Translations under genes and position numbers: made by a program
Shown here: positions 32,959-64,000 of the stretch, one piece after another
How positions within the stretch are numbered: the first letter of the stretch is position 1
Layout of the letters: every line of letters starts with the position of its first letter
DNA from: a phage
DNA: 64,000 bases
Sequence record: PX880100.1
Reading direction: 5' to 3' (one strand)
Notes under the pieces: model-generated
What the model was told of the DNA's origin: nothing
What the model saw: only the letters and a program-made list of their open reading frames with translations
The model's database searches: none

Positions 32959-35518
32959 CGAGAATCCTTCTCACGTTATCCAAATCTTTACATACAGCAA
33001 TAAACTTATCATCCTTGTATTTGCTATGATCTGGATGCTCTTTATCCATTGCAGCTAGTTTCTTATACTCGAACTCTGCATCAAGTAATACACCCTTGAC
33101 ATAACGAGTATATTCATCATCATCAATACAAGCGATTGATGGGTGCTGTTTCTTCATCTTACCACAAGAATAGTCACGAGAACCTCCAGCTTCAGAATCT
33201 GAGTCAATACCAATCGGACAACCAGGAATACTGATACCACGGTCTTTCTGAATATTACGAATCAGGATTTCATTGTATTGGTCGATCAAATCCTCACGAA
33301 CAATAGCAACTACGGAGTCGTGAACCAGCATAACAATCTTCATCTCTTGTTCTAGGCCAAGAGAAATGATCTCATTATCTGCATCTACAGCACCTAAAAG
33401 GAGACTATCAGAAGAAGCAGACTGAATGATTGCGTTAAATCCAGAACGGATTTCTTCACCCTGAACACCACGGTCTTCGGAATGGATATTATGCAGACGA
33501 CGTTTACGCCCAAAGTGACTATAGATAAATCCATGATTCTTGATCTGGTCGTGACATTTATCAATCCAACGCTTAAGCTGCGGGAACTGACCGAAGTAAG
33601 TTTCGATATAGTCCTTCGCATCCGCAACAGTACACTCTACAAACGGTTCTCCTGTCTTAGCAGCCTGTTCCAAAAGAGCTTCGTTAACAGAATGAGCTAC
33701 CTTAGCCGGGCCAGAACCATACAAAATACCAAAGGTGATTGCTTTAGCTGCTTGACGCAGAGCTGGGAATAACTTTTTAACATCACGAGGCTCGCATTGG
33801 AGCTTAAATACCATGTGTGCGATGTTAGAGTGGAAGTCAGGGTATTTATCTGGTTCATTTCTCATGTTGATAAATACTTGTTGCATATTTCTATCACCAG
33901 ATAGAACAGCAGCATAATAAACTTCCGCAGTTGTTAAGTCCCATGCAATTACACGATACCCGGGAGGGGCTACTACACAACCCTTGATAATAGATTCATC
34001 ACGAGGTAACTGTTGCAGATTCAGTTTACCAGAAGAACTCAGACGACCAGAAGTAGTCATATGTTCATGGAAGCCAGTACGAATGCAACCATCAGCATCA
34101 ATGCTCAGAAGAATCTTCTCAACGTAAGTAGAGATCAGCTTAGTCAGCTTACGAATCTCTAGTAGGGTCTTAGCAATTGGATGCTGCGTAGACAATTCGT
34201 TCAGAGCTTCTGCATCTGTAGAGTCTGCTCCAGTATCCGTCAATTTACCTGTTGGAGTTAAGCCAACATAATCAAACAGAAGAACACGGAGTTGTTTAAC
34301 AGAGTTTGGGTTAAACGCTTCGTTCTGATCTTTCTCTAGCTGAACGACTTCTGGATAAGTATACAGCTTTTCACGAGCTTTATTCAGATTATGAGTTAAC
34401 TGGTACTGTGCTTCTTTCAAGCGATCAATAGAAATTGGTACACCACGATCTTCAACACGCTGGAGAAATACGCAACCAGGCATTAGAACATCATAATACA
34501 GACTGCAAAGTTTTTCATTCTTCTCAATTTTTGGTAAGAAGAAATTGTGCAAACGTAGGGTGGCATCGGTATCTTTTGCAGCGTAAGGCCACATAATATC
34601 AAACGGAATTAAATCATAGGTGAAATCTTCTTTCTTGATCTTATGTGCTTTGCAGTAATCATCCTTGAACTTATCTAGTTCAAAGTCATAGTCACCCATA
34701 TCGGTATACTTCATTGCTAGAGATTTCAAGCCATGAGTACCACGACGTTCATCTAGAACATAATGCTGCAACATAGTATCATGGAGCCTGCGTTCTTTAT
34801 GCGCTTTATCAAAAGTAAGTCCCAGATGGTACTTATAAAAGTGCATATCAAACTTCAAGTTGTGAAAAACAATAGTGTGGTTTTCACTATCCAGAATTTT
34901 CTGGAGATAATATACTGCAACCTCTGTGAGACAATCAGAATCGATATATACACCCTGATATTCTTGGTGAGACATAGAAACACCAAGCAGATAACCATCT
35001 CGACAGTATAGTGCTGAGGTTTCGGAGTCGAATGCGACAGGTCCGATAACCATATTATACACCATCTTGATATATTCTTCCGCCTCGTCAGGGTCAGTAA
35101 TAGGACGGTAATCACCAGCTTTTGCAATCTTCTCACGACCATTGATAATATCGTGGATATTTTCTACTGTTGCATCGAAAACTGGTTTCATTTCAGGCTT
35201 AAAGTGTAACTGGGCTGGGCTGATACTCGCAATCCAGTTAGCATATCCATTATACTCTACACGTTTACCAGTATAGTCACCAATGCCTTTCTTACCTGCG
35301 AAATACAGGAAAGGTTCAGCACCTACCAGTATAACAAAATCATAATCATTCGGGTCAAATGGGTTTTCCGGAGTCCCAATAGTAATATGCTTTTTGAGCA
35401 AACGACCGGATAACTTCTCGTTACACATATGGAATACATCAACTTCCTCGCCGTATAGCTGGAAATGTTTATCGTAACGAGTGTTATTTAGAGCTTTATC
35501 AACTACTGCGATTTTCAA
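32951..35518 (-). CDS. family A DNA polymerase with 3'-5' exonuclease domain (T5 DNA polymerase-like, 855 aa)
   Basis: Same length as T5 DNA polymerase; Pol I-type motifs (RRLHDTML..., KxxxFGxxYG-like AKAITFGILYGSG, VHDS); TTG start preceded by RBS AGAGGAG. Confidence 0.9.
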   Translation of the reverse strand: MKIAVVDKALNNTRYDKHFQLYGEEVDVFHMCNEKLSGRLLKKHITIGTPENPFDPNDYDFVILVGAEPFLYFAGKKGIGDYTGKRVEYNGYANWIASISPAQLHFKPEMKPVFDATVENIHDIINGREKIAKAGDYRPITDPDEAEEYIKMVYNMVIGPVAFDSETSALYCRDGYLLGVSMSHQEYQGVYIDSDCLTEVAVYYLQKILDSENHTIVFHNLKFDMHFYKYHLGLTFDKAHKERRLHDTMLQHYVLDERRGTHGLKSLAMKYTDMGDYDFELDKFKDDYCKAHKIKKEDFTYDLIPFDIMWPYAAKDTDATLRLHNFFLPKIEKNEKLCSLYYDVLMPGCVFLQRVEDRGVPISIDRLKEAQYQLTHNLNKAREKLYTYPEVVQLEKDQNEAFNPNSVKQLRVLLFDYVGLTPTGKLTDTGADSTDAEALNELSTQHPIAKTLLEIRKLTKLISTYVEKILLSIDADGCIRTGFHEHMTTSGRLSSSGKLNLQQLPRDESIIKGCVVAPPGYRVIAWDLTTAEVYYAAVLSGDRNMQQVFINMRNEPDKYPDFHSNIAHMVFKLQCEPRDVKKLFPALRQAAKAITFGILYGSGPAKVAHSVNEALLEQAAKTGEPFVECTVADAKDYIETYFGQFPQLKRWIDKCHDQIKNHGFIYSHFGRKRRLHNIHSEDRGVQGEEIRSGFNAIIQSASSDSLLLGAVDADNEIISLGLEQEMKIVMLVHDSVVAIVREDLIDQYNEILIRNIQKDRGISIPGCPIGIDSDSEAGGSRDYSCGKMKKQHPSIACIDDDEYTRYVKGVLLDAEFEYKKLAAMDKEHPDHSKYKDDKFIAVCKDLDNVRRILGA

Positions 35519-35579
35519 ATTTAATCTCCTCTTGGTAAGTAAGTATAACTTCAGTGTTTCTTCTCTAACTTACCAATAT

Positions 35580-35609
35580 ATTATACCAAATCTTTAAGCG
35601 ATTCAGCAA
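35580..35609 (-). promoter_or_regulatory. sigma70-type promoter for the DNA polymerase gene
   Basis: Minus strand: TTGCTG, 18-bp spacer, TATAAT; the -10 overlaps the primase stop codon. Confidence 0.5.
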
Positions 35610-36471
35610 CTAAAATTTCAATACGTTTTGCTAACATATCAATTTCATCTTTGTTTAAGTCACCTGGATCTTTGCCTTCTGGTAGAAGAAAGTTAGCAAC
35701 TACAGGTGTTAAACGCGTTTTTGTACGAATTAGCTTAGCCAATGCTTGTGCAGCCTTATTACCAGAAGCATCATTATCTAATAAGATAACAACAACTTTA
35801 ACACCAGCAATAATATAAGGACTGAACTTATCTGCAATGTTATCCGAGGTAAACTGATGTGTACCAAAGCAGCAAGAAGCATAGTCTATACCATTATCCT
35901 CTAGGTTCAGCATATCAAAGATACCTTCAACTAGAATAAGAACTGGAGTATTATATCGTACAGGGAAAATCGGTGGTGAAACTTGTTTTGGTTTTACTAA
36001 GTATTTAGGAGGGGCAGAACTGTTTATAGAACGACCCAAAAATAGGATATTGCGTCCAACAGCATCTGTGATTGGGAATACAATTCTGCCTTCCCAGTCT
36101 GCTTGGTGTTGGAAAGCAAAATATTTCTTCAAGGTCTTAGAACTTATACCTCGGAAATCACCTTCGAAAAGGTAAGCAGATTCAGGAATTGCAAGATTTG
36201 TAGATCCATTCCTAATCTCTGAAATCTTTTTACGTACCTGCGATAGTCTTGGGGACTGTCGGTACTGAGTCTCATTAAAATAATGGTAAATGCTCGGTAT
36301 ACCTTTACCGAAGCCACAACTCAAGCAGTGCATAATACCTGTTTCAGGATCAATACGCAAACTTGGGTGTTTATCGTCATGATCTGGATTGAGACAACAG
36401 ATGAGGATGTCCCCACCTGTGTCTTTATATTCAATGCCTTTCAGATCAAGTAGTTCTGTTATTCTACTCAT
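35581..36471 (-). CDS. DnaG-like DNA primase (296 aa)
   Basis: N-terminal zinc ribbon (CCLNPDHDDKHPSLRID...HCLSCG) and Toprim motifs (LVEGIFDML, LLDNDASG). Confidence 0.75.
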   Translation of the reverse strand: MSRITELLDLKGIEYKDTGGDILICCLNPDHDDKHPSLRIDPETGIMHCLSCGFGKGIPSIYHYFNETQYRQSPRLSQVRKKISEIRNGSTNLAIPESAYLFEGDFRGISSKTLKKYFAFQHQADWEGRIVFPITDAVGRNILFLGRSINSSAPPKYLVKPKQVSPPIFPVRYNTPVLILVEGIFDMLNLEDNGIDYASCCFGTHQFTSDNIADKFSPYIIAGVKVVVILLDNDASGNKAAQALAKLIRTKTRLTPVVANFLLPEGKDPGDLNKDEIDMLAKRIEILVAESLKDLV

Positions 36472-37991
36472 ATATCGCTGGCCTGTTCACCTGTTGAATT
36501 TTCAGTTTTGTCTTTCTTAGCACGTTTAGGTTGAGCCGGCTTATCCTTCTCAATAGGGATAACGAACTCAGCTTCCATTTGAGATATATCTTCCATTGCT
36601 AGGTTGGTAGTGTTATCCATTCGCAGAGTTTCCCAGTTCATTTTAGGCATAAACTTCACGCTATCAGAAGAACGAGTCTTAACGAAGTCAAACATAATAG
36701 CACCTTGACCATTATCAGCTTTTGCAGCGTTAAGATTAGCAGCCATGTCGGCGGAATCAAGAATCCCCTTTGACATACGTGTTCTACCATCTTGATCAAT
36801 CTGGTAAGGAGCTACACCAGCCACGTTATGTTTCTGGCAGATAGATTTGAAAGACGAGCTAACAACCATCTGTTCTTTCCAGTCATACATATCAATGGTT
36901 TTAGAGTCTGGAAGTCGGGTTTGGTTAATATAGTCCAGTAAAGCTACTGTAACTTTATCTCCATATCTAGCAACTAATTTATTTAATTCTACGTCAACTG
37001 TTGTAATAGATAGCTCAGGGTCATAAACAATAATCATAGGAGTATGTAGCTCATACCCTTCTATTAGCTTACTTTCCATATCGTAGAAATCACTCATCTT
37101 AGCCATTGTGTACTGTTTAACGAAGTTATCGAAAAGCTCTTCACCCCCATTAAACATTCTAGCTCTAGTTCTGGCTAATCTCAATAGAGCTGCACCTTCT
37201 AGAGTATTATTACGCATTGCTAATGCTGATACACCAGCTAACATGGCTAGATTACGTCTAAATACTTCATGTTCTTTCATCTCAATTGAGAAGTATGGAG
37301 CAATATCTCCATTCAAATATTGCTGAACCTGTATGTTTGAACAGATAATGGATTTACCAGTACCACGCCAACCACCAAGCAGTAACGTTTCTGTGCGAGC
37401 TAAACCAATTTGAGCGTCGAACTCATTACAAATACCAAGAGCGATTAAGTTCAGTTTGGTATCTTCTTCTCTCTGGAAAATACGCATGTTATCTGCGTTG
37501 AATACTTTTCCAGTATTCGTTACTTTCTCTTCTAATTTTAAGTGAAGGGAGGCAACTCGGTTGAGAATTTCTCCCTGATCCAGCATTGTTAAATCTTGAA
37601 GCACGTCTGTTTCTAGAAGCTTCAGGAATAAATCTTGTGTATATTCGGCTTCTAGGACTTCAAGTGCCTGTTCCATGCTCACTTCTGGAATTTGAGTGTT
37701 AGCTAAGACGACTAGAGCTTGAGAAAGGCGGGCGTTCCTATTAGCTTCAAGCATAAGTGCGTCAATGGACGGCATTGTGTTATATTTTTTATAATAATTC
37801 TGGACGGCTTGGTAAATTGAGGAGAAAGCGTCATTAAAATGATCTTTATGCAGTTTTGAGAATGTTTCCAATGCTATTTGCTTCTGTTCGGAAGCTAGAA
37901 GCATCTTCAACACTACAGCTTGCACGTTAAACAAGGTCATTCTCCTTTGCACGCTTTCGTGCCTTCTAAATGCAAAAAGGGGAAGGAGCAT
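36468..37991 (-). CDS. DnaB-like replicative helicase (507 aa)
   Basis: RecA-fold P-loop GGWRGTGKS in the C-terminal half with an N-terminal helical domain; overlaps the primase gene start. N-terminus uncertain (alternative ATG at 37940). Confidence 0.6.
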   Translation of the reverse strand: MLLPLFAFRRHESVQRRMTLFNVQAVVLKMLLASEQKQIALETFSKLHKDHFNDAFSSIYQAVQNYYKKYNTMPSIDALMLEANRNARLSQALVVLANTQIPEVSMEQALEVLEAEYTQDLFLKLLETDVLQDLTMLDQGEILNRVASLHLKLEEKVTNTGKVFNADNMRIFQREEDTKLNLIALGICNEFDAQIGLARTETLLLGGWRGTGKSIICSNIQVQQYLNGDIAPYFSIEMKEHEVFRRNLAMLAGVSALAMRNNTLEGAALLRLARTRARMFNGGEELFDNFVKQYTMAKMSDFYDMESKLIEGYELHTPMIIVYDPELSITTVDVELNKLVARYGDKVTVALLDYINQTRLPDSKTIDMYDWKEQMVVSSSFKSICQKHNVAGVAPYQIDQDGRTRMSKGILDSADMAANLNAAKADNGQGAIMFDFVKTRSSDSVKFMPKMNWETLRMDNTTNLAMEDISQMEAEFVIPIEKDKPAQPKRAKKDKTENSTGEQASDI

Positions 37992-38022
37992 AGCCCCCTC
38001 CCCTTAGGTTTAATTTACCAGA

Positions 38023-38790
38023 TTATTCAGCAGCCGCAGCTTTTGCATCCAGTTTAGCACGCTTAGCGGCACCATCATAGTCCTTAGCAACCAGACCGCG
38101 ACGAGACAGCATAGATTTAACACCGCGCTCAGACTTACCAGTTTTCTCAGCGATCTCAGCAACAGTCATGTTAACCAGATCCAGACCTTCTAACAGATCT
38201 TCACGAGTTTTAGCACTTGAAGTTTCCTGTACCGGCATAGCAGCGATACGACCTTCACGAAGTAGGCTCAGAGCTTTACCACGGATCTGCTTGATATTAC
38301 GACCGAAGTGAGCAGCGATAGCTTCAATAGTAGCACCAGCAACAACCTGATTAACAAAATCAGTTTCTTCATCCGGAGTGAAGGAACGAACAGCAGCAGC
38401 TTTTTCAGTTGGCTTAACAGAAGCGGTCATTTCCAGACTCAGGATCTTACCCTGTACCTGTTTAGCACCGAACTGACCACCAGCTACAGCAGCAGCGATT
38501 TCAGCATAGGTATACTGACCAGCATGAGCGTTCAGGAAATCAACCAGTTCAGCTTCCTGCTCAGGAGTCCACGGGGATTTCTGCACTTCGTTAGCTTTTT
38601 GTACTTCAAAACCTTCTTTACGCAGTTTAGAGCCAACAGAGCGAGCAGTAACATCTTTGCCAGTTTCAGCAGCCAGTTCAGCAGCAATAGCAGCTACTTG
38701 TTCTTGAGAGATTACAGAAACACCCAGAGCAGTGGCTTTTGCTTTCAGAGACTCGGTTACACCTTCTACGTTCCAGTTCAGTTTAGACAT
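38023..38790 (-). CDS. putative DNA-binding protein with repeated helix-rich modules (255 aa, T5 D5 position)
   Basis: Three to four repeats of a ~30 aa Ala/Lys-rich module (e.g. MTVAEIAEKTGKSERGVKSMLSRRGL); host-optimised codon usage; a related module occurs in ORF 41699-42109. Confidence 0.4.
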   Translation of the reverse strand: MSKLNWNVEGVTESLKAKATALGVSVISQEQVAAIAAELAAETGKDVTARSVGSKLRKEGFEVQKANEVQKSPWTPEQEAELVDFLNAHAGQYTYAEIAAAVAGGQFGAKQVQGKILSLEMTASVKPTEKAAAVRSFTPDEETDFVNQVVAGATIEAIAAHFGRNIKQIRGKALSLLREGRIAAMPVQETSSAKTREDLLEGLDLVNMTVAEIAEKTGKSERGVKSMLSRRGLVAKDYDGAAKRAKLDAKAAAAE

Positions 38791-39553
38791 TATTATTTTT
38801 CTCCAATAGTTCTTTAATCGACAGGATTTCTATCCCATTCGTTTCGGCTTTCTTATAAGATGAGGAAGAACGTTTTGATTCATCCTCACAGATTAGGTAT
38901 TTGACGTCTTTGGTAACGGATTTCTTAACCGTATATCCTAGACCTTCTAAATAGTTTGTTGCATCCGTTCGATTTGCAAAATCTTGCAAAGATCCGGTAA
39001 TACATACCGCGATTCCATTTGGCTGGGCAACTAAATCATCAGTAACGACGGTTTTAGCTTTAGCACCAGTTGAGAATTTCCACGGTAGTTCGATAACATC
39101 CTTGCCTTGTGGGGAATTTAGCCAGGCTTTATAATTTTCTCCAGCCTTGCCGTCAGCCTTCACATCGTGGAAGCTAGTGCAATTTTGGGATAATTTCTTT
39201 GCTGCAACCTCTCCAATTAGAGGGATTCCTAAAGAACCGAGAACTGAACCAAAGTCAATGTCTCCGCGAACTTTAGTATTTAATTCGCTAATTAACTTAG
39301 CGGCAACCTTGCTACCCACGGCTCTAACCAAATCTTCTTCGGTTAGGTAAAATAGTTCTGAAATCTTCGTCAGCTCCAGCTTCTCAATAGTTTTCGGGCC
39401 AAAGCCCTTTAACTTCATTTTTGTACAGAAGTTCTCAATTAACTTACTTGATTGCGCTGAACAGTTGGACTTATTACGACAGAATAATTGTCCGTTGACA
39501 AGATCTAGCTTAGAACCACAAGAGGGACATTGTGTTGGAATTTCGATTTTCAT
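38783..39553 (-). CDS. ligB: NAD-dependent DNA ligase, C-terminal subunit (Zn finger, HhH, BRCT-like)
   Basis: CPSCGSKLDLVNGQLFCRN zinc-finger motif followed by helix-hairpin-helix-like region; start moved to ATG 39553 with RBS AAGGAAG. Confidence 0.75.
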   Translation of the reverse strand: MKIEIPTQCPSCGSKLDLVNGQLFCRNKSNCSAQSSKLIENFCTKMKLKGFGPKTIEKLELTKISELFYLTEEDLVRAVGSKVAAKLISELNTKVRGDIDFGSVLGSLGIPLIGEVAAKKLSQNCTSFHDVKADGKAGENYKAWLNSPQGKDVIELPWKFSTGAKAKTVVTDDLVAQPNGIAVCITGSLQDFANRTDATNYLEGLGYTVKKSVTKDVKYLICEDESKRSSSSYKKAETNGIEILSIKELLEKNNNV

Positions 39554-39583
39554 CAAATTTCTTCCTTATCAATTTATATAGAT

Positions 39584-39612
39584 ATTATAGCAAGTATTTA
39601 AGCATTTAGCAA
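39584..39612 (-). promoter_or_regulatory. sigma70-type promoter between the two ligase genes
   Basis: Minus strand: TTGCTA, 17-bp spacer, TATAAT. Confidence 0.55.
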
Positions 39613-39676
39613 CTACAATTTTAACTAACTTTGCTTACCCTCGCCATAACTTTCTATCCCTCAACTGAATGATAAT

Positions 39677-39705
39677 AGTATATACCTAAGCGGCGAAAAT
39701 GTCAA
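39677..39705 (-). promoter_or_regulatory. second promoter between the two ligase genes
   Basis: Minus strand: TTGACA, 17-bp spacer, TATACT. Confidence 0.45.
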
Positions 39706-39755
39706 TAACCACTTTATAATTCCGATATGGTAGATGGGTAGCAAAGGGTTATGTA

Positions 39756-40730
39756 TTAATCGTATACTCGTTCTACTATGCATGGGATTACACCACCAGC
39801 ACGAATCACTCGAATCTGGCAACCGATCTCTAGATCAAGAGAGTTAATATAATCAACGTTATTAAGAGTCGCTTTAACAATTGTAGCATCATCAATAATT
39901 ACTGGTTCAAAATAACCTACTGGAGTTACTTTACCAGAAGCCCCTACCTGCCATTCAACTTTAGTAAGAGTTGTAATCTCGCCTTCTTCATCCTCTTTAA
40001 TGGCGAATGCTCCACGAGGGAATTTATTAGTCCAGCCTTCACGGAAGAATTTGTTGTTGTCATTAATACGAACAACTTTACCGTCCGTCGGAATCCATTT
40101 AAAAAAGGAACGCACATTAACAACTGTTAAGAAGTTCTCATTCTCTAGCCAAAGCATATCTTTTAAATATGCTTCTGTAATACCTACAGATTCAGCAGAA
40201 CACTGGATACCGTATGCAACGAAGATTAAGCCACCTTCCCCGATACGTTGTACGAAATCATCGCTATCTTTGAGGTTAATAGCACCAGAGGCAAAGTTAC
40301 GTTTATTTTCTACTTCTTTTGTAATTAGAACTTCACCAGTGATTTGAGTAGGTACTTTTTGGGAAATCTTTTTAGGGATGTTCAGCAATCTTACGTTGCT
40401 TGTGACATCATTTCCCAGAATACCGTTACCACGAGTTAATGCTTGAACAAATTCACCGTTAATATATAATAGAGAAATTGCACAACCATCTAACTTATCT
40501 GTTTCTACCTGACCTAAAGGATTAAATGGTGGTTTATCCCCACGATTATAATAAACTTTCTGTAAAGAATACATACGGTACAGATGTGGAATATCACCCT
40601 TAGGCCCGATCTCTTCTTCTAATGGGAAGCGTTTTACCAGGCAATCATACTCCTCATCAGAGATTAAAGACATGCCTTGATAATATGCTTCTTGACAACG
40701 CTTAATAAAGCCTTTTACATTATTCATCAT
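39756..40730 (-). CDS. ligA: NAD-dependent DNA ligase, N-terminal adenylation subunit (324 aa)
   Basis: KxDG adenylation motif (ETDKLDGCAISLLY) and OB-fold region; separate ORF from the C-terminal subunit, with about 200 bp of promoter-containing spacer between them. Confidence 0.8.
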   Translation of the reverse strand: MMNNVKGFIKRCQEAYYQGMSLISDEEYDCLVKRFPLEEEIGPKGDIPHLYRMYSLQKVYYNRGDKPPFNPLGQVETDKLDGCAISLLYINGEFVQALTRGNGILGNDVTSNVRLLNIPKKISQKVPTQITGEVLITKEVENKRNFASGAINLKDSDDFVQRIGEGGLIFVAYGIQCSAESVGITEAYLKDMLWLENENFLTVVNVRSFFKWIPTDGKVVRINDNNKFFREGWTNKFPRGAFAIKEDEEGEITTLTKVEWQVGASGKVTPVGYFEPVIIDDATIVKATLNNVDYINSLDLEIGCQIRVIRAGGVIPCIVERVYD

Positions 40731-40920
40731 CGGCGATTTCCATCTTGAGTTCTTTATTATATTGTGTAACCATATCCATCAAATCAGCAGATTCTTTCAG
40801 AAACGAATCTTTGTACGCCTTTTGATTTACTGTGCCTATGCTATCTTGATAATTAATACGTGCTGTGGAAAGTAGATTAAGTTTTGCTTGAATCTTGGGA
40901 AGTGTTACTGTCATAGCCAT
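40720..40920 (-). CDS. hypothetical protein (66 aa)
   Basis: ATG at 40920 preceded by RBS GAGAGGA and the promoter at 40950-40978; overlaps the ligA start. Confidence 0.35.
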   Translation of the reverse strand: MAMTVTLPKIQAKLNLLSTARINYQDSIGTVNQKAYKDSFLKESADLMDMVTQYNKELKMEIADDE

Positions 40921-40949
40921 GATTGATCCTCTCATTAATTTATATAAAT

Positions 40950-40978
40950 ATTATATAACAAAACTGAGTTGAAAGCAA
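40950..40978 (-). promoter_or_regulatory. sigma70-type promoter
   Basis: Minus strand: TTGCTT, 17-bp spacer, TATAAT, then leader ATTTATATAAATTAATGAGAGGA. Confidence 0.6.
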
Positions 40979-40987
40979 ATACATTTA

Positions 40988-41021
40988 TAAAGAAAAAGCC
41001 AAGAACTAGGCATTCTTGGCT
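40988..41021 (-). terminator. rho-independent terminator at the 3' end of the PC4-like gene
   Basis: 9-bp stem AGCCAAGAA/TTCTTGGCT overlapping the stop codon, followed on the minus strand by TTTTTCTTT. Confidence 0.6.
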
Positions 41022-41314
41022 TTTAGTTCTTCAGCTCGTTTCTGTACTTCATGTAAAACCTCAGATTCACTAAGAATCTGTGTAAACGCATAGAAAAGCT
41101 GTGATGTTGTTTCTAGGGTGTAAGGAAAAGAGAAGCCAGATTTCGTTGGAAACCATTCATCATTAATATCAAGAAGCCAGTAACGAATACCCATGTATAG
41201 ATTCCCACGAAATTCAGATACTGTTAATCTTACTTGTTCCCCCTCCTTCTCCCAAAGTATGATGGACTGGTCATCAACGTGTCCTTCATAGTTTTGATTT
41301 ACCTGTTCGCTCAT
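41006..41314 (-). CDS. PC4/Sub1-like ssDNA-binding protein (102 aa)
   Basis: Central segment ILWEKEGEQVRLTVSEFRGNLYMGIRYWLLDINDEWFPTKSGFSFP resembles the PC4 coactivator ssDNA-binding fold; a PC4-like protein has been described in phage T5. Confidence 0.5.
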   Translation of the reverse strand: MSEQVNQNYEGHVDDQSIILWEKEGEQVRLTVSEFRGNLYMGIRYWLLDINDEWFPTKSGFSFPYTLETTSQLFYAFTQILSESEVLHEVQKRAEELKAKNA

Positions 41315-41364
41315 TTACATATCCCAAATACACAAAAAGCCCCATATAGGGGCTAATTGTTTTC

Positions 41365-41661
41365 TTATCGGCCTACTGGAGAAGCACGATCTAACTCTGA
41401 TTGGAGGCTAGTCACACGACGGACTTTCTCGACAGGAATAAAACGGAAGCTATCATTAGTACGAGAGAAGACAAGGATTTCATCATCTTTCGCTTTACGG
41501 ATACGTTCGCGTTTAATACGCTCAGCCAGATATTTATCTTGGGCCGGATCAAATTCCATTGTACCCTGAAGGTACGTGGTTCCTTTCTGACGAAGTTTCT
41601 CGTAATGAAGATAAAACTCACCAAATTTTTCGCACTGTGCAATAATTTCAGCTTTAGTCAT
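41365..41661 (-). CDS. hypothetical protein (98 aa)
   Basis: ATG at 41661; followed by a hairpin (AGCCCC/GGGGCT) plus T-run terminator at about 41322-41345. Confidence 0.35.
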   Translation of the reverse strand: MTKAEIIAQCEKFGEFYLHYEKLRQKGTTYLQGTMEFDPAQDKYLAERIKRERIRKAKDDEILVFSRTNDSFRFIPVEKVRRVTSLQSELDRASPVGR

Positions 41662-42488: not shown

Positions 42489-43161
42489 GTTTCAGGGCAG
42501 CCTTAACAGCTTCGTTAATCAACGTAATAATTTCTTCACGAGTCCATTTATACCCCAGAGACTTTACATCAACCCCTAGCTTTTCCAGATGTTTAACAGA
42601 GGCCAACTCGTAATTCATATAATGAACGTTCTGTTGTTTGCCTTCTGATAAAAGCCATACACGGTAGCAACCAACAGGATTATCCATTGCTTTTTTGATT
42701 TCACCGATACACTGGTATCCAGGAACCCAAACAAGCTCACCAACTGCAAATTCTTCTGCTACAGCATCATCAGGAATAATCGGAGGATTCAATGGATCTA
42801 CAATATCATTCAAACGAAGTAGAGCACCGTAGCGTTCCAGAACAGATTTAACCATTGCTACAGAGCGATAATTACGATCGGCAATTTCTTCAAAAGAATC
42901 ACCAGATAAATACTGCTCAATAACGTTGGCTAACTCGATGCCTTCAATAAGTGTGCCACGTTTCTTTTTCTTCATTTCGGCAACTTGAATCTGGCGGTCT
43001 TGCCATTCTTCAATCATCCTTTCCATAGTTGGATTGGATGATACGCCGAGCATTTCACATGCTGCTTTCTTAGTACCACCGTTCTCCAGATGCTCTATAA
43101 CCTTTTTAAAGACTTCATCCGGAATTTCATGGATATGTTTCTTTCTACGAGAACCAGCCAT
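42457..43161 (-). CDS. putative HTH transcriptional regulator (234 aa)
   Basis: Two helix-turn-helix-like segments (TKKAACEMLGVSSNPTMERM; SFEEIADRNYRSVAMVKSVLERYG); ATG at 43161 preceded by RBS GAGAGGAG and the PN25-like promoter. Confidence 0.4.
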   Translation of the reverse strand: MAGSRRKKHIHEIPDEVFKKVIEHLENGGTKKAACEMLGVSSNPTMERMIEEWQDRQIQVAEMKKKKRGTLIEGIELANVIEQYLSGDSFEEIADRNYRSVAMVKSVLERYGALLRLNDIVDPLNPPIIPDDAVAEEFAVGELVWVPGYQCIGEIKKAMDNPVGCYRVWLLSEGKQQNVHYMNYELASVKHLEKLGVDVKSLGYKWTREEIITLINEAVKAALKLDKEKGKRRE

Positions 43162-43192
43162 ATTTAAACTCCTCTCTCAAATTTATGAATCT

Positions 43193-43221
43193 ATTATACA
43201 GAAATTTTTTGCACTATGCAA
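43193..43221 (-). promoter_or_regulatory. strong sigma70 promoter closely resembling the phage T5 PN25 promoter
   Basis: Minus strand reads AAAAATTTATTTGCATAGTGCAAAAAATTTCTGTATAATAGATTCATAAATTTGAGAGAGGAG: TTGCAT, 17-bp spacer, TATAAT, with the PN25-type AT-rich upstream block and CATAAATTTGAGAGAGGAG leader. Confidence 0.7.
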
Positions 43222-43229
43222 ATAAATTT

Positions 43230-43496
43230 TTACGATTCCTTGAGTAAAGAAGCAAGTTCAGCATAGACTTTATCTAACTCAAAGCCGATGCGAAGAGACA
43301 CGTTTGTTTTCCGTTGTTTAAGTAACCACTCGGATATGTTAGGGATGCCAGCTAATCTATGCGGTACCACCCTACATAGCTTTTCCGAAGTGTCGTAAAC
43401 AGGAACTTTACGTTCCTTTACTGGGAACTTCCTTGTTTCCCATTTTTTATTCTTCACTGTCATTTCTAGCACCCAGCTCTGCCATTGCTTCATCAT
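43230..43496 (-). CDS. hypothetical protein (88 aa)
   Basis: Start moved to ATG 43496 (MMKQWQ...) with GGAGA upstream; overlaps the 3' end of the large helicase gene. Confidence 0.3.
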   Translation of the reverse strand: MMKQWQSWVLEMTVKNKKWETRKFPVKERKVPVYDTSEKLCRVVPHRLAGIPNISEWLLKQRKTNVSLRIGFELDKVYAELASLLKES

Positions 43497-46236
43497 GCAT
43501 ATGTTTCTCCTCATCAGTCATAAACTTATACGGGATTGGCATACACTCGATTTTACAATAGGTTCTGTACCAGTCTACAATATTCTCCGTGTTCATATCC
43601 TTACCAATACCCATCATACCAAGATACATTCTTGCATATTTTGGGTTAGCACTCTGACCTGTTTTAAGGAAGAAATCTTTCTTCTTACCTTTCAGAGCTT
43701 CTATGAATGGTTTGATAGTGACATTTGAACACTTCTTAATATCTTCCCAGAACATCTCGTGCATCTTATGGAAGAATGCAGCTCGATCATTCGGTTTATC
43801 CTTGATATATTGTTCAACATGCTCAACTGTTACATCTTTAATAGACTCAAGATGATAGTAGCGAACAAGAAGTAGTTTAGCTTCATACGCATCTGCATGG
43901 CGTGGAGCACAATAATCAGGAGTTGAATACAAAATAGCTTTGATTCGCTCTTCCGTATATTCCTTCCCAGCACCTTCGATAGTTCCCCAGCTTTCACTGA
44001 AAATATCAATAGTTGCACCCTGATCAAGCAAGTAATAACGTAAAGTACTAGTATAATTCCTAGACTCCAGCTCCCTGCGACGTGCGTATAATTGCTGTGC
44101 TAACTCCAGCCAACCTTCATCAATGTTATATTGCTCAGAACCTGCGGAGAATCCACTCGTAGATTTATCAATAAAATAATAAATGTTCTGAGCGCCACGG
44201 TCGCGCCTGATTGCTTGGAAACGCATGTTTGGCGCTTGGTTGCTGGTTCTAGTAATAACGAATACGTTATCAAAATAGTTGAAATCAACACCACTAGTTA
44301 CGGATGGGCTACATAATAAGCAATCAATTTGTTGGTCAATTAGCTCATTAGTTGTGTAATCCAGAATACGTCGAATATCCACATCAGATGTGGAGTTTGA
44401 GTGGATTTCCTTAACTAACGCACCCGTATTACGACGCAGCGCCATGCCCTTCTCATTCAGTTCATCAGGACCACAATCAGATACCAGAATAGATTTCTCA
44501 CCCATTTCTAGAGAAGTCTGAAGTGCAACCCAAATACTGGATTCATCCGGGAACTCATAAGCATGAGCTTTTGACAGCATCTTACGGTGATGATTATAAA
44601 ATGCTACTGGTTTATCAAACTCAATCAAAGAGCCATATGCTTCAATTGTTTCTGCACTAATATCCCCATCAGATAATATAATAATTTTTGCAGTTGCAAG
44701 AATGTCCCGAAGAACCTGAATACATTCACGACGTTGTTTAACAACCGGGGCGAATAATAGGTCATTCATTACAGCATCACATTCATCGATAAAGATTGCA
44801 TCAATTTGACCAATAAAACTCTTGAACTTATGCAAAGAGTGAATAGTTGTGGACATACGGTCAATAGCACCACGCTTAAAATTAAGCATATCTACAGACT
44901 TATCATATTGTCCTGCACTGAATTTCTTAGCATTTGAAGACACCAGCGCTCTAGTATTGGTAATTGCTAAGAAATTACCTTTAATAACTCCCGAATCTAA
45001 CCAACGCACAACCGCCGTAGTTTTACCTGTACCTAGACTTGCTTTTACAAAAGTCATATAACCTTCTGGTGGCACAGTATTTAATTTCAAGAAGTTATCA
45101 GTTTCTAGAGAATTAGTTTCTAGCTTTTTAAGTGGAATACCTTTTAAAACATCTGGTATATCACGTTTAGAATTATTAACAAATGCTTTCAGAGCCTGTT
45201 TACGACCATTATTAAAGTAATCTTGAATATTGCGACTATTATCTTTAGTTGCAATATATTCTGATAAGGCTGGACGAATTTCTTTTTCTAGCCATGCAAA
45301 ATCAACACCATCCTCCAAAGCTCTATGATAGAGTTTAGGGATAATACGTAGATACACCCCATCCTCAGCTTCTTCTAGTTCGCTGATAGTTTCCTCTACT
45401 TTATCAGAGGCAGCTTTTTTACCTTTAATTTGATCGAGTAAAGAGTAAAACTCCTCCTTAAACTCACCTCTAGTTGTTTCATAGTCAACCAGATTATTGG
45501 GTAAATTTACTTTAGAACCCTTAACAAATACCAGACGTGAAGCACCCTCCGCTTTAAACGGATCTACTATACCATCAATAAATAACGGATCTGCAAAATA
45601 ATGGAGCTGTACGGAAGAGTAATAAGCTAAGTCGGCAATATCAAAGCCATACTTTTGTCTACTACTTTCGTTGATAGATGTAAATAAGAATTTGATTTGA
45701 CCCTGAGTTACTTTAACATTAGATTCTAGTATTAAGTGCATTCGGATACCTGGTTTTAGCCCAGCCGAAGACGATGCATGAGCAATAAACCCTGCATCAA
45801 GAGGAAACATATCCTCACTAATACTATTTAACATTCTAATAATATGTCGAGCCATGCCAACAAGATCAAACTTGTTACAACCACCTGTATCTACAATACC
45901 ATCCACGTCCATTGCAATTATATGACTTGGGTTAGATACATTAAAGTTGCCCTTCTTACGTCGCACATTATTTTTAGGTGCAAGACATCGACCTCGTACC
46001 GCAACGATATGAGGGTCAGACGTTAAACGTCTCATAAGAGGAAGCATTTCTACTAGGGTTTGAGGATCAACTTCATCAATTACATCAAACTTGAAGGGCA
46101 TTGAAGCTGGTTTACCTTCAGGATGCTTTGAGGAAAATCTTTTAGCAAAAAGATAGTCTTCTGCTTTAACTTCTCGCCAATTGCCTGTGGCTAAATCGCG
46201 ATGAAATCCTGCATGACCTTGTAGGATTGAGAACAC
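43447..46236 (-). CDS. large P-loop NTPase / putative replication-initiation helicase (929 aa from GTG 46236; track ORF 955 aa from TTG 46314)
   Basis: Walker A FVKASLGTGKTT and Walker B/DExx AIFIDECD in the middle of the protein; N-terminal ~400 aa carries acidic clusters (IIAMDVDGIVDTGG) that could be a primase-polymerase-type domain. GTG 46236 is preceded by AGGAG at a 7-nt spacing. Confidence 0.55.
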   Translation of the reverse strand: MFSILQGHAGFHRDLATGNWREVKAEDYLFAKRFSSKHPEGKPASMPFKFDVIDEVDPQTLVEMLPLMRRLTSDPHIVAVRGRCLAPKNNVRRKKGNFNVSNPSHIIAMDVDGIVDTGGCNKFDLVGMARHIIRMLNSISEDMFPLDAGFIAHASSSAGLKPGIRMHLILESNVKVTQGQIKFLFTSINESSRQKYGFDIADLAYYSSVQLHYFADPLFIDGIVDPFKAEGASRLVFVKGSKVNLPNNLVDYETTRGEFKEEFYSLLDQIKGKKAASDKVEETISELEEAEDGVYLRIIPKLYHRALEDGVDFAWLEKEIRPALSEYIATKDNSRNIQDYFNNGRKQALKAFVNNSKRDIPDVLKGIPLKKLETNSLETDNFLKLNTVPPEGYMTFVKASLGTGKTTAVVRWLDSGVIKGNFLAITNTRALVSSNAKKFSAGQYDKSVDMLNFKRGAIDRMSTTIHSLHKFKSFIGQIDAIFIDECDAVMNDLLFAPVVKQRRECIQVLRDILATAKIIILSDGDISAETIEAYGSLIEFDKPVAFYNHHRKMLSKAHAYEFPDESSIWVALQTSLEMGEKSILVSDCGPDELNEKGMALRRNTGALVKEIHSNSTSDVDIRRILDYTTNELIDQQIDCLLCSPSVTSGVDFNYFDNVFVITRTSNQAPNMRFQAIRRDRGAQNIYYFIDKSTSGFSAGSEQYNIDEGWLELAQQLYARRRELESRNYTSTLRYYLLDQGATIDIFSESWGTIEGAGKEYTEERIKAILYSTPDYCAPRHADAYEAKLLLVRYYHLESIKDVTVEHVEQYIKDKPNDRAAFFHKMHEMFWEDIKKCSNVTIKPFIEALKGKKKDFFLKTGQSANPKYARMYLGMMGIGKDMNTENIVDWYRTYCKIECMPIPYKFMTDEEKHMHDEAMAELGARNDSEE

Positions 46237-61461: not shown

Positions 61462-62163
61462 ATGAAAGTAAAACCATTTGGTATGCTAGATATTGAATCT
61501 CTGGGAACTCCAGGAGATTGTGGTACTACTCATATCGCAATGCCTTCTTTCGCTTTTGTGGCTATGCATGGAATTGATAAAGACCCTGATCTAATATTTG
61601 TTACTTTGGATGTACAAGATCAGCTTAATTCTGGTGCCAAAGTTACAGCATCTACTCTAGCATTCTGGATGGATCAAGCTAAAAATAGCCCGTCTGCTAT
61701 CCACATTATGGAAGCTATGAAGGAACGTAATCCAAAACTGATTGCCTTCCAAAATGGTAAACATCATTGCACTAATAAACTCGGCTCTAACTATGCTGCC
61801 TACTCTATGGCTAAAAATATTATGGAGTTGGCTTTAGGCGAAAATGCTTTGTATTATGGCAACGGTCCAGAGTTTGATATGACTATCTACTCTGCAAACA
61901 CGTTCCATGCTGGAACCAATGAAGAGGTAGTTCCGTGGAAATTCTGGAATTTGGGTAATGTTCGATCTCTTCGTAACCTCTGGATGCAAGCTGGATACAG
62001 TTATAAAGCTCTAGAGACCGAAGGTATTAGCTGGGCAATAGCTAAAATGGAGAAGATGGACACCATTCGTTATGGGATCTATCCGGTTAAGCACGACCCA
62101 GCATTTGATGCCTTAGTTGAAAGCTATTGTGTTGCAGCTATGATCGAAAAAATGAAAATTTGA
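61462..62163 (+). CDS. putative DEDDh-type 3'-5' exonuclease (233 aa)
   Basis: N-terminal Exo I-like MLDIESLGT and C-terminal Exo III-like H-x4-D (VKHDPAFDALVESY); the middle motif was not identified. Confidence 0.4.
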   Translation: MKVKPFGMLDIESLGTPGDCGTTHIAMPSFAFVAMHGIDKDPDLIFVTLDVQDQLNSGAKVTASTLAFWMDQAKNSPSAIHIMEAMKERNPKLIAFQNGKHHCTNKLGSNYAAYSMAKNIMELALGENALYYGNGPEFDMTIYSANTFHAGTNEEVVPWKFWNLGNVRSLRNLWMQAGYSYKALETEGISWAIAKMEKMDTIRYGIYPVKHDPAFDALVESYCVAAMIEKMKI

Positions 62164-62164
62164 T

Positions 62165-62193
62165 TTGCTTCCGGCCCCAAAATTCTGTATAAT
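62165..62193 (+). promoter_or_regulatory. sigma70-type promoter with conserved leader
   Basis: TTGCTT, 17-bp spacer, extended -10 TGTATAAT, leader TTCATAAATTTGAGAAAACAACAAAAGGAAAACAAAT before ATG 62234. Confidence 0.6.
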
Positions 62194-62233
62194 ATATTCA
62201 TAAATTTGAGAAAACAACAAAAGGAAAACAAAT

Positions 62234-62416
62234 ATGCCAGTATCTAAAAATGTTCGTAAAAATGGTAAGAAAGCTACTCGTAATCTGGGTATCCGTCGTA
62301 TGGCTGAACGTCAATCAGGTGTCCAGAAAATCTTTGATCTGCTAAATCGTGCTAATCCTAAAATTGATAACAGTAAAGATACTGTTCTGCGTACCTTACT
62401 GGCAATGGGTCTGTAA
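62234..62416 (+). CDS. small basic protein (60 aa)
   Basis: Lys/Arg-rich N-terminus; host-optimised codons; own promoter. Confidence 0.35.
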   Translation: MPVSKNVRKNGKKATRNLGIRRMAERQSGVQKIFDLLNRANPKIDNSKDTVLRTLLAMGL

Positions 62417-62468
62417 TAGACCAACTTTAAACAAATTCAAATCTTAAACTTCATATAAGGAAGAAACA

Positions 62469-63107
62469 ATGACCACTCGTATTTCTAAAACTCGTGCTCT
62501 GGCAACCATCAAATCTCTGGAAGCTAAAATCCGTAAAGCTACTGAACAACAGCTTCTGATCGCTGTTGGTGAAGGTAAGGATAAAAACCAGGTTGTAGTT
62601 GGCGCTGCAATCGAAGTAGCTGATCTGTCTACTCGTATTAAGACTGATTTCCAGTCTCTGCTGGATATGATGTCCCAGCGCGATCGTATCAAAGCTGCTC
62701 TGATTAAAAGCAATGCGGAAACAATCGTTGAGATTGGCTCTCGTAAGATGACTGTTGCGGAAGCAATTGAAGCTAAGCGTTCTATGGAACTTAAAGCTCA
62801 ACTGCTGGCTAACATGCGTAAGCAGTTCCATGCCGCTACAGTTAAGTTTAATGCGCAGAAAGCACAGTTTGATGCTAAATATGAGCGTTTGCAGGATAGC
62901 ATGGCTACCCGCGATAAGAAAACTTCCGAAGATGAAGTTAAAATGCAGCTCAACCTGCTGGAACTCAAGAATACTCCATTCTTGATTGATCCGCTGGAAC
63001 TGGAGAAGCTGATTAAGCAGCATGACGAGGAATACCAGGACTTTGCAACAAATGTTGACTTTGTTCTGTCCGAGTCTAACGCCTCTACCTTCATTGAAGT
63101 AGAGTAA
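62469..63107 (+). CDS. hypothetical alpha-helical protein (212 aa) with host-optimised codon usage
   Basis: RBS AAGGAAGAAAC before ATG 62469; helix-rich sequence; cgt/ctg-dominated codons. Confidence 0.45.
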   Translation: MTTRISKTRALATIKSLEAKIRKATEQQLLIAVGEGKDKNQVVVGAAIEVADLSTRIKTDFQSLLDMMSQRDRIKAALIKSNAETIVEIGSRKMTVAEAIEAKRSMELKAQLLANMRKQFHAATVKFNAQKAQFDAKYERLQDSMATRDKKTSEDEVKMQLNLLELKNTPFLIDPLELEKLIKQHDEEYQDFATNVDFVLSESNASTFIEVE

Positions 63108-63490
63108 TAATTTAAAAGCTAGTAAATCGGTAGACGAAAGCCCAAGCATCTTACCTCGCAGCAGCGGTTGAAATACGAGGTTAAATAAGACCGCTGACCA
63201 TACTATAAAGTATAATCTATTGGAGATTATGTTTATTACACCAGCCTTTTAAGCTGACACGTAAGAACAAAGCGTCGTTGATATTACCGACACAACTTCA
63301 AAGATCAACATTTAAGTATGAAAGCTGAAAAGTTTAAAGAACTCAAACTTCTAAACTTCTAAAGCTAAAAGATGCAAAGTATTCGTTGATGATTCAAACC
63401 CTAGATCAAAGGTACATGGCTCATAAGATATGGCCTGTGGCGCCTCTAGGCTGTTTATCGGTTTACTAGTTTCACAATTTAAAAATGTAT

Positions 63491-63519
63491 TTGCTAATTT
63501 ATTAAGTTATCTGTATAAT
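63491..63519 (+). promoter_or_regulatory. sigma70-type promoter
   Basis: TTGCTA, 17-bp spacer, extended -10 TGTATAAT; RBS-like GAGG before ATG 63550. Confidence 0.6.
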
Positions 63520-63549
63520 ATATTTTTAAATTGATGAAACGAGGCTATT

Positions 63550-63867
63550 ATGACTTTTCATATTTTGATTGATGATGTGCGTAATCTTCACGGAATGGAC
63601 ATTATCATTCGAACCCCAGAAGCCGCTGTAGAGTTTCTGAATAAAACTGATACCACCGGCCATTTCGTTTATATGGATAATGACTTGGCTGTAGATGGTA
63701 TGGAAGGTTATCAAATTCTTCGTTTACTCTTAGAATTTGGGCAGAGACCAAAGAAAGTGGTACTAGTAACCTCGAACCCAGTAGCTAAGCAAAATATGCG
63801 TAATGATTTGCTTGACTTAGGGTATAAAGAAAATCCCAATCGTGTTGAATATGATTGGCAGGAGTAA
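63550..63867 (+). CDS. hypothetical protein (105 aa), possible receiver (CheY-like) fold
   Basis: Spacing of ILIDDV (acidic pair), FVYMDNDLAVDGMEGYQIL (candidate phospho-acceptor Asp) and KVVLVTSNP (Thr/Ser) mimics a response-regulator receiver domain; no output domain. Confidence 0.3.
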   Translation: MTFHILIDDVRNLHGMDIIIRTPEAAVEFLNKTDTTGHFVYMDNDLAVDGMEGYQILRLLLEFGQRPKKVVLVTSNPVAKQNMRNDLLDLGYKENPNRVEYDWQE

Positions 63868-63872
63868 AAAGA

Positions 63873-64000
63873 ATGAAGGCAGCTTTGCTTTTAGTAGCTG
63901 CCCTTACCTTCAGCTTTAGTAGTCAGGCATCGCACGATGCAAAAGAAATAGATTGCATTGCTAAAAATATCTATTTCGAAAGTCGTGGTGAGGGCATAAA
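63873..64000 (+). CDS. secreted cell-wall hydrolase-like protein, 3'-truncated by the window
   Basis: Signal-peptide-like N-terminus (MKAALLLVAALTFSFSSQAS) followed by CIAKNIYFESRGEG, which resembles the start of SleB-type hydrolase domains; only 42 codons are visible. Confidence 0.35.
   Translation, partial: MKAALLLVAALTFSFSSQASHDAKEIDCIAKNIYFESRGEGI

Follow-up and report, generated by a model that had tools for sequence, protein, structure and literature searches.

A conserved, structured RNA gene downstream of the T5.085 (PHROG 1491) protein gene in T5-like phages and bacterial chromosomes

What occupies the gap between the homologues of T5.085 and T5.084 in T5-like phages, where most of the sequence has gone without annotation? 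We address this question in PX880100.1, a 64,000-nt stretch of phage DNA (hereafter the window) from a T5-like phage (Tequintavirus); the phages AKFV33 and OSYSP are ~99% identical to it, and relative to the T5 reference the window is reversed. The gap, 442 nt in total, follows the T5.085 homologue (62469-63107) and precedes the T5.084 homologue (63550-63867), which is a cREC_REC receiver-like protein (“cyclic-phosphate processing receiver” domain). T5 is a classic model phage. In its equivalent interval (~43063-43504) a promoter is the sole annotation in NC_005859, AY587007 and BF23, and the part homologous to the RNA described here (T5 ~43142-43504) is featureless in the T5 records, BF23 and AKFV33, apart from a doubtful antisense open reading frame (ORF) in AY692264. 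A first-pass annotation of the window had marked 63108-63490 as a single ORF-free unit with short repeats and a hairpin, possibly a small RNA, an iteron-bearing site or an origin. We report here that the region is a gene for a structured RNA, unannotated, widespread and apparently undescribed, which has a protein partner of its own. The existence and architecture of the RNA are well supported, and we consider it likely that 63115-63473, on the + strand, encodes a structured RNA of ~355 nt that is the fixed partner of the upstream protein and assembles with it.

Sequence comparison indicates strong selection on this region. Matches to the gap occur in 455 phage records, of which 437 reach at least 80% coverage, and across ~440 T5-like phages the RNA region is 88-100% identical, mostly 90-100%. 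Against Epseptimavirus the RNA is 94-95% identical while the flanking coding sequences (CDSs) are at 82-90%; within the RNA, the 5′ part from the closing helix P1 through the pseudoknot and the 3′ domain are at 98-99% (98.9% for the 3′ domain) and the central stretch at 86-89%. The first-pass annotation had proposed a conservation comparison, and would have abandoned its reading had the region been poorly conserved or absent in relatives; the opposite holds, the region being better conserved than the neighboring genes. The + strand has a minimum free energy z-score of −4.9. No small conserved ORF was found in the region, and the claim that it holds no ORF longer than 17 codons is approximately right: ORFs of 20, 27 and 34 aa overlap it, though none is gene-like.

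The interval first marked out merges two separate things, the RNA gene and part of a T5 early promoter that follows it. The boundary between them is marked by an insertion in the Salmonella phage PMBT22 (L004 1366-1903), where ~540 bp carrying a gene for a 170-aa HNH_3 homing endonuclease fall between the RNA 3′ end and the promoter, at the equivalent of window position 63471/63472. Of the three options raised, the small RNA was correct in kind, but a ~355-nt, multi-domain, doubly pseudoknotted molecule filling the gap is not small.

The RNA is closed by P1, a helix of 21 bp (G-U pairs included) with a duplex energy of −26 kcal/mol, whose 3′ strand adjoins the motif GGCUG; in alignment A2 the G18, C19 and G21 of this motif are invariant and U20 is kept in at least 90%. 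At least 12 anchored P1 pairs were found in 23 of 48 real loci, as compared to a maximum of 10 in reverse-complement and shuffled controls, and a compensatory A-U to C-G change (L050) occurs within the T5 group itself.

MAFFT with RNAalifold recovered no structure in the 5′ part of the RNA, where fold is conserved and sequence is not; we therefore used a pseudoknot finder with shuffle controls. It returned an H-type pseudoknot whose topology recurs in nearly all lineages with unrelated sequences, scoring a mean of 26.6 in real loci against 14.2 ± 8.4 in dinucleotide shuffles, with 17 of 25 above the shuffles’ 95th percentile. The 7-bp hairpin noted in the first-pass annotation (CAGCGGT 63162-63168 and ACCGCTG 63190-63196, followed by ACCA 63197-63200) has correct coordinates and is real, but it is stem 2 of this pseudoknot and not a free hairpin, and the ACCA is specific to T5, not being kept in relatives.

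Two to four variable hairpins per RNA follow the pseudoknot across the family. One of them, GUUGAU/ACCGAC in the window, reads GUUGGU/ACCAAC in Epseptimavirus, and in Klebsiella phages UCGAAU/AUUCGA takes its place. The repeated words that had been remarked on in the region were counted correctly, with two copies each of CGTTGAT and GATCAA, yet a 6- or 7-mer occurring twice within 380 nt is at chance level, with ~4 repeated 7-mers expected by a rough estimate. The second copies of these words lie in the conserved lead-in of the 3′ domain and in helix A. A pairing of the CGTTGAT words with the GATCAA words was considered and is unsupported; it is the local hairpin GUUGAU/ACCGAC that covaries. 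Likewise, the isolated TATAAT at 63211-63216 is present as reported but falls within the variable hairpin region, inside an RNA hairpin, and occurs at chance level with no −35 partner.

Beyond the hairpins lies an array of 7-nt periodicity with the unit N-U-N-A-A-A-G. Autocorrelation peaks at lags 7, 14 and 21 (0.43, 0.41 and 0.38 against a background of ~0.22), and AAAG-to-AAAG spacing is mostly 7 or 14. A position weight matrix from 706 units in 132 distinct RNAs has U at position 2 in 75% and Y-U-C-A-A-A-G as its commonest unit, positions 4-7 being set by the search pattern itself. Arrays are clean in L032 (period 7 × 5.7 copies by Tandem Repeats Finder, TRF), L042 and L056, and degenerate in the T5-like phages. 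The tandem AAACTTCT doublet at 63345-63360 that had been picked out earlier is real (TRF, 2.4 copies, score 38), but it is a degenerate part of this conserved array.

In the 3′ domain, helix A was found by RNAalifold, with 96-98% paired, 4 of 5 pairs covarying and a covariation score reached by 0 of 500 shuffles. The apical loop of helix C supplies one strand of a tertiary helix, T1, whose other strand is a hexamer in the junction just before the pseudoknot. A fully complementary hexamer (6/6) occurs in the same two windows in 43 of 55 distinct RNAs, as compared to 4.8% in a junction-loop swap control, with 26 different hexamer pairs of which nearly all share one register. A score-only test against shuffled loops was weak (11 of 55 above the 95th percentile); the fixed-register swap test is the decisive one. 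Together these comparisons show the fold to be closed and compact, running from P1 through a single-stranded junction, the pseudoknot, the hairpins and the array to the 3′ domain, and show the apical loop of that domain pairing back to the 5′ junction.

To follow the RNA beyond the T5-like phages, we searched 72 phage-derived sources and 80 bacterial loci with R1, a covariance model (CM) of the 3′ domain. R1 matched 147 of these 152 loci (68 of 72 phage, 79 of 80 bacterial), with one match in each of the 68 phage sources, always on the strand of the protein gene; in the 64-kb window there is a single match, 63386-63453, at 50 bits. In the 147 loci the match begins 180-750 nt past the protein stop codon, mostly 200-400, on the coding strand; the RNA lies ~450-570 nt from the protein gene in L110 and L116. 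Locus L192 has a second + strand match, and L209 a further, marginal minus-strand match (18.8 bits) inside the protein gene. The RNA is thereby shown to be a fixed genetic partner of the T5.085/PHROG 1491 protein gene in phages and in bacterial chromosomes.

With nhmmer and blastn, a homologue was also found in the ~145-kb Vequintavirinae (Klebsiella, Cronobacter and Salmonella phages), directly after a T5.085 homologue and followed by tRNA genes. Loci retrieved from IMG/VR through the protein (29-43% protein identity) have a non-coding stretch of ~290-400 nt on the same plan whose sequence is unalignable. IMG/VR contains 372 relatives of the protein and the set of one-per-species bacterial genomes 209, the latter mostly Bacillota (Lysinibacillus, Solibacillus, Brevibacillus, Paenibacillus, Sporosarcina and clostridia), and detectable loci in phages and bacteria exceed 500. 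Across 13 distant phage loci the protein is the sole conserved gene of the neighborhood, and no other conserved neighbor of the module appeared in the loci compared. Bacterial contexts are heterogeneous and not obviously prophage, with neighbors that include a two-component system, TnpB and a TOTE conflict-system gene; in L150 the neighbor, read from sequence, is an apparent multi-pass membrane protein and not a phage gene. In ~20 Lysinibacillus species (L148-L175; e.g. L150 1486-2410) the RNA match stands at almost the same offset from the protein gene, which may reflect a single, vertically inherited cellular copy of the module.

Strand and distribution also tell against two of the options first raised for the region. 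The short repeats read as a possible iteron-bearing site are 7-nt units within the RNA, and G-U pairs, abundant in its strand-specific helices, would turn into A-C mismatches in duplex DNA or when read from the opposite strand, which argues against the iteron and origin readings. The origin option further conflicts with the CM results, since every match of at least 20 bits is on the coding strand, and with the presence of the element in bacterial chromosomes. Several direct repeats of ~17-22 bp, as an iteron origin would have, were looked for in the region; it holds only an 8-nt doublet and chance-level words of 7-12 nt.

The partner protein itself belongs to PHROG 1491, which is labeled “tail fiber protein”, as are many GenBank records. 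This label is probably wrong, a propagated error, because the gene is an early one in the tRNA region, is predicted to encode a bundle of helices, and is also found on its own in the chromosomes of Bacillota. The protein matches no Pfam, NCBIfam or PADLOC family. Its AlphaFold model is a confident bundle of long helices with a small sheet (predicted local distance difference test, pLDDT, 88), for which the sole strong structural neighbor is 3kdq, a protein with no assigned function.

We envisage the following scheme. The early promoter that precedes T5.086 would drive a common transcript of T5.086, T5.085 and the RNA, as the lack of any promoter or terminator between the protein gene and the RNA suggests, and the RNA would be trimmed to its P1-closed core. 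RNA and partner protein would assemble into a ribonucleoprotein (RNP) with the pseudoknotted core as scaffold, and the exposed heptamer array may offer multivalent binding, whether to the partner protein in several copies or to a different ligand. The phage context, with its tRNA clusters and its RNA-processing and anti-defence genes, suggests a role for such an RNP in RNA/tRNA metabolism or in host-phage conflict.

Several points weigh against this proposal. The transcription, ends and abundance of the RNA are features that we infer, and it is from gene linkage alone that we infer binding of the RNA by the protein, which has no recognizable RNA-binding domain. In 28 divergent sequences 99% of P1 cells are paired and 11 of 12 pairs vary on both sides, but these loci were picked for having the helix. 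Support is weaker for helices B and C, with 67-78% paired over alignments A3 and A4, most pairs varying on both sides. In the T5 group T1 has a competitor, GCAUCUU 63146-63152 with AAGAUGC 63369-63375; this alternative pairing was not seen in the inspected Klebsiella-phage (Vequintavirinae) sequences. The bacterial copies that we inspected are mostly without nearby tRNAs and sit in varied contexts, so the tRNA clusters around the phage copies may be incidental. Finally, no published description of this RNA was found in the literature searched, the coverage of which was incomplete, and an earlier description is possible.

Does the RNA belong to a family already described? Rfam 15, with 4227 models including GOLLD, ROOL, RNase P, 6S, SRP, Y RNA/YrlA, OLE and raiA, was scanned against the window, 13 distant phage loci and 30 bacterial loci, and nothing overlaps the RNA even at E ≤ 10. 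The Rfam matches near it are tRNAs and skipping-rope RNA alone, and the best matches below a family’s gathering threshold (snoRNA and miRNA models; Tymo_tRNA-like, with 14.5 bits where 40 are required) are no more than noise. The tRNA-like scan that the first-pass annotation had recommended alongside Rfam was equally negative: ARAGORN calls no tRNA or tmRNA gene in the 64-kb window, nor any that overlaps the RNA across 15 related loci, and the Rfam tRNA models have no match in 62000-64000 or 63105-63480, even at E ≤ 10. A tRNA-like element ending in CCA is rejected, as the nucleotides after stem 2 differ by lineage (AACAUAAU, AAAUUAAC, UCCUAUUA, CUCAUGCG and others).

The size of the RNA, its long closing helix, the GCGAAA-like junction before the 5′ H-type pseudoknot and the downstream hairpin with UAA in its loop presumably echo E. 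coli tmRNA, a likeness of use as a lead only. The similarity of shape is superficial: this RNA is without a tRNA-like domain, a conserved CCA end or a conserved tag frame. The ARAGORN tmRNA search and the Rfam tmRNA families (E ≤ 10) were negative, and no conserved ORF was seen after the pseudoknot. We also tried RNase P, as the 3′ end GGCUGUUUAUCGG...GUUUCAC resembles E. coli M1 RNA and GACGAAAGCCC its CR-I motif; Rfam was negative here too, and the pairing that would correspond to P4 shows no covariation in other lineages. A T5 nick site (Pu|GCGC) was likewise set aside, the annotated major nick being at T5 39746 and not here, and a lone GGCGCC being unremarkable, and the PhiTE pseudo-ToxI locus is unrelated.

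In context and complexity the RNA comes nearest to GOLLD and ROOL (RF01998 and RF03087), large, multi-pseudoknotted RNAs often found beside tRNA genes, at phage/prophage and at non-prophage chromosomal sites (PMC5737381). There is no sequence or structure match to either by Rfam; the present RNA is ~290-400 nt in length as compared to ~580-800, and it has a heptamer array and a near-obligatory partner gene; no partner is described for GOLLD or ROOL in PMC5737381. In its logic the RNA is closest to the protein-partnered repeat RNAs, namely type III antitoxins and the Csr/Rsm sponges. Type III antitoxin RNAs (ToxI, CptI and TenpI) are encoded by phages and bacteria and are conflict-linked (PMC3475682), and like this RNA they combine a protein partner, tandem repeats and pseudoknots. 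Their 36-45-nt repeats are themselves the pseudoknots, however, and the RNA lies upstream of an endoribonuclease toxin, whereas here 7-nt units are built into one large fold and the RNA is downstream of a helical protein; moreover, a type III toxin would have a ToxN/AbiQ, CptN or TenpN fold, the protein has no Pfam or PADLOC match, and type III membership is rejected. The CsrB/RsmZ sponges likewise bear many copies of a short motif, which fits multivalent binding of one factor, but theirs is GGA in hairpin loops, not N-U-N-A-A-A-G at strict 7-nt phase; in our case the array sits within a large tertiary scaffold with its presumed ligand encoded next door, and there is no homology. The eight stable RNAs of T5 (RNAI, RNAIII, RNA1, RNA2, RNA2H, RNAIV, RNA3 and RNAX; NC_005859) are also non-coding and in or next to the tRNA region, but map elsewhere, at T5 30284-41566. 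For none of GOLLD/ROOL, type III antitoxins, Csr/Rsm sponges and tmRNA does the RNA pass a membership test. We group the copies under a proposed family, “PHROG-1491-associated heptamer-repeat RNA”, with these traits: P1 with 5′ CGA and 3′ GGCUG, a 5′ H-type pseudoknot, a junction-to-loop hexamer helix, a 7-nt NUNAAAG array, a 3′ domain of helices A-C, and a position just after the PHROG-1491 gene. The window copy has all of them.

Other explanations of the array and its setting can be offered. In one, the heptamers are “super-codons” that bind the 7-nt anticodon loops of UUN/CUN tRNAs (Gln, Lys and Glu) with the protein as cofactor, and the RNA gathers, shields, sequesters or splints those tRNAs; we hold both parts of this to be unlikely. 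Its appeal lies in exact complementarity: UUCAAAG, the unit seen most often, pairs in full with CUUUGAA, the anticodon loop of T5 tRNA-Gln(UUG), while UUCAGAG (L042), UUAAAAG and UUGAAAG fit Gln(CUG), Lys(UUU) and Glu(UUC), and the fixed unit positions U2, A6 and G7 mirror the tRNA loop invariants A37, U33 and C32. The phage copies, besides, sit in tRNA clusters, and tRNA-Gln, -Lys and -Glu are those that anticodon nucleases classically attack. The complementarity was spotted post hoc, however; by a rough estimate, an exact fit to any of 23 loops, whatever the register, would arise at ~1%, and about one third of random repeats suit the generic loop-complement pattern when the register is left free. 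Unit position 1 is variable, unlike tRNA position 38, the heptamers of L111 fit through wobble only, and the scarcity of tRNAs near the inspected bacterial copies counts against tRNA binding as well. Carried further, the idea becomes that of a widespread RNP module of phages and Bacillota, an ornate ~300-400-nt RNA with a ~210-aa helical protein, whose phased array would be a multivalent, codon-like track on which the anticodon loops of tRNA-Gln, -Lys and -Glu dock. This is a doubtful proposition, and if true the particle would capture, protect or help to repair tRNAs hit by anticodon nucleases, or would sequester host tRNAs, in a new mode of RNA-guided tRNA handling encoded by a model phage, T5.

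We think it quite improbable that the module is instead a toxin-antitoxin-like or conflict cassette, a mobile two-gene unit in which the RNA neutralizes or regulates the protein by titration on the array. Strict two-gene linkage would suit such a cassette, as would the scattered bacterial contexts, some beside TnpB and a TOTE conflict-system gene, the type III-like combination of tandem repeats with pseudoknots, and the location of the phage copies in a T5-like region known as an anti-defence island (preprint 10.1101/2023.03.15.532788). Set against this, the order is protein then RNA with no terminator between, the repeat is 7 nt as compared to 36-45 nt in known type III systems, the protein is a helical bundle and not a ToxN/Kid-like nuclease, PADLOC has no match, and the near-identical offset in ~20 Lysinibacillus species may reflect one inherited locus.

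A purely cis-acting 3′ untranslated region (UTR) element, which would stabilize or process the upstream mRNA or block 3′ exonucleases with no function in trans, is very unlikely. Although the RNA starts 8 nt past the stop codon without a promoter of its own and in every case follows the gene on the strand of that gene, an RNA of ~355 nt that combines two pseudoknots with a covarying tertiary helix and junction nucleotides that hardly vary goes far beyond the needs of known stabilizers; its structural cores, not its ends, are most conserved, and the distance of the L110 and L116 copies from the gene also tells against it. A DNA-level element (replication origin, iteron array or protein-binding regulatory site) is almost certainly not the answer, since for all that the region is AT-rich with short direct and inverted repeats, and that we know of no T5 origins mapped at sequence level, the helices are kept through G-U pairs and strand-specific covariation, the 7-nt repeats are degenerate and inside the fold, CM matches are on the coding strand bar the one marginal minus-strand match, and the same protein gene adjoins the bacterial copies.

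Returning to the surroundings of the RNA in the window, the promoter that follows it comprises TTGCTA 63491-63496, a 17-nt spacer (within the 16-18 nt sought) and TATAAT 63514-63519, with a scan score of 10/12. It is annotated as such in AKFV33, T5 and BF23, and it resembles other T5 early promoters, which share sequence with 63475-63533. The near-perfect inverted repeat that brackets it (Table 1) may serve as an operator, or may form an RNA hairpin across the start of transcription. The gene at 61462-62160 has an Rv2179c-like 3′-5′ exoribonuclease domain, and T5 records call it a metallopeptidase or exonuclease; this gene and that at 63550-63867 carry RNA-metabolism signatures. In AY692264 (T5 st0; L002 844-1641, minus strand) a 798-nt ORF, T5p083, runs antisense to T5.085 and enters the 5′ part of the RNA, and the same ORF occurs in the window (62451-63149, 232 aa); it is very likely spurious. 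The T5 st0 deletion mutant, which is without many tRNA genes, retains the RNA and the partner gene. Short records named as Listeria or Campylobacter phages (H40, H24, H78 and H88) are 98-99% identical to the present T5-like sequence, as is the Enterococcus faecalis protein P0010; these are probably contaminated or mislabeled submissions.

Some RNA features were also observed near copies of the module elsewhere. Skipping-rope RNA (RF02924) is phage-associated, with a reported link to a nearby protein gene (PMC5737381). It is a separate 80-nt element with its own terminator and only occasionally near the module: it lies within a few hundred nt in L038 (2645-2732), L040 (2642-2729) and L138 (2519-2647) and ~2.9 kb upstream of the protein gene in L043 (35-113), and it is absent from 20 further loci and from the window. 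Right after the RNA in L036 (~4040-4085), L037 (~3940-3985), L034 (~1900-1960) and L040 (~4040-4125) we saw, by eye, tRNA-like pieces with an acceptor-like stem and a T-arm such as GGAGTTCGAATCTCC or GTGGTGCGAGTCCAC; ARAGORN does not call them, and they may be degenerate tRNAs or processing signals. In L032, an uncultivated phage with the module, there is a tRNA with anticodon UUA at 1765-1837, a potential ochre suppressor, and heptamers of the UAA type (AUUAAAG and GUUAAAG) are frequent in the RNA.

Table 1. Positions in the window of the RNA gene, its structural elements and adjoining features
Feature	Position	Strand	Remarks
Partner protein gene	62469-63107	+	212 aa; T5.085 homologue; PHROG 1491
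Structured non-coding RNA, ~355 nt	63115-63473	+	starts 8 nt past upstream stop codon
P1 closing helix, 5′ strand	63116-63136	+	ends in conserved CGA of CGAAA 63135-63139
P1 closing helix, 3′ strand	63452-63472	+	abuts near-invariant GGCUG 63449-63453
Tertiary helix T1, 5′ strand	63148-63153	+	junction hexamer AUCUUA, just before pseudoknot
H-type pseudoknot	63153-63196	+	begins ~15-25 nt after P1 across family
Pseudoknot stem 1	63153-63158 with 63176-63181	+	ACCUCG with CGAGGU
Pseudoknot stem 2	63162-63169 with 63189-63196	+	CAGCGGUU with GACCGCUG; the hairpin of the first-pass annotation
Variable hairpin region	63200-63291	+	least conserved part, 86-89%; indels in Epseptimavirus
Variable hairpin AUACU/AGUAU	63200-63213	+	
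Variable hairpin AAUCU/AGAUU	63214-63228	+	
Variable hairpin CAGC/GCUG	63242-63256	+	compensatory C-G to A-U in T5 group
Variable hairpin GUUGAU/ACCGAC	63277-63291	+	covaries across lineages
7-nt-periodic array, N-U-N-A-A-A-G	63296-63379	+	contains AAACTTCT twice
3′ domain	63382-63453	+	conserved lead-in UUCGUUGAUGAUUCAAACC; three helices A-C
Helix A	63400-63404 with 63446-63450	+	CCUAG with CUAGG
Helix B	63410-63413 with 63442-63445	+	AGGU with GCCU
Helix C	63418-63420 with 63433-63435	+	GGC with GCC; closes 12-nt loop 63421-63432
Tertiary helix T1, 3′ strand	63424-63429	+	UAAGAU, in helix-C apical loop
ORF, 20 aa	63249-63311	−	not gene-like
ORF, 27 aa, TTG start	63386-63469		not gene-like
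ORF, 34 aa, ATG start	63430-63534		not gene-like; split by PMBT22 HNH insertion
T5-type early promoter and ribosome-binding site of next gene	63474-63549	+	outside RNA
Inverted repeat bracketing promoter	63475-63486 / 63522-63533		CAATTTAAAAAT / ATTTTTAAATTG; 12 bp, extendable to 17 at 94%

Large ornate bacterial RNAs are rare, and have repeatedly proved unusual in biochemistry or architecture. A covarying, doubly pseudoknotted RNA with a fixed partner at more than 500 loci would be a new class of structured RNA and, likely, a new ribonucleoprotein. The module is tractable, given T5 and E. coli genetics, a small and confidently modeled protein, and a concrete binding hypothesis from the array. 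The finding corrects a propagated “tail fiber protein” annotation and adds a non-coding component to the tRNA/anti-defence region of the T5-like phages, which serve in phage therapy and in screens of defence systems.

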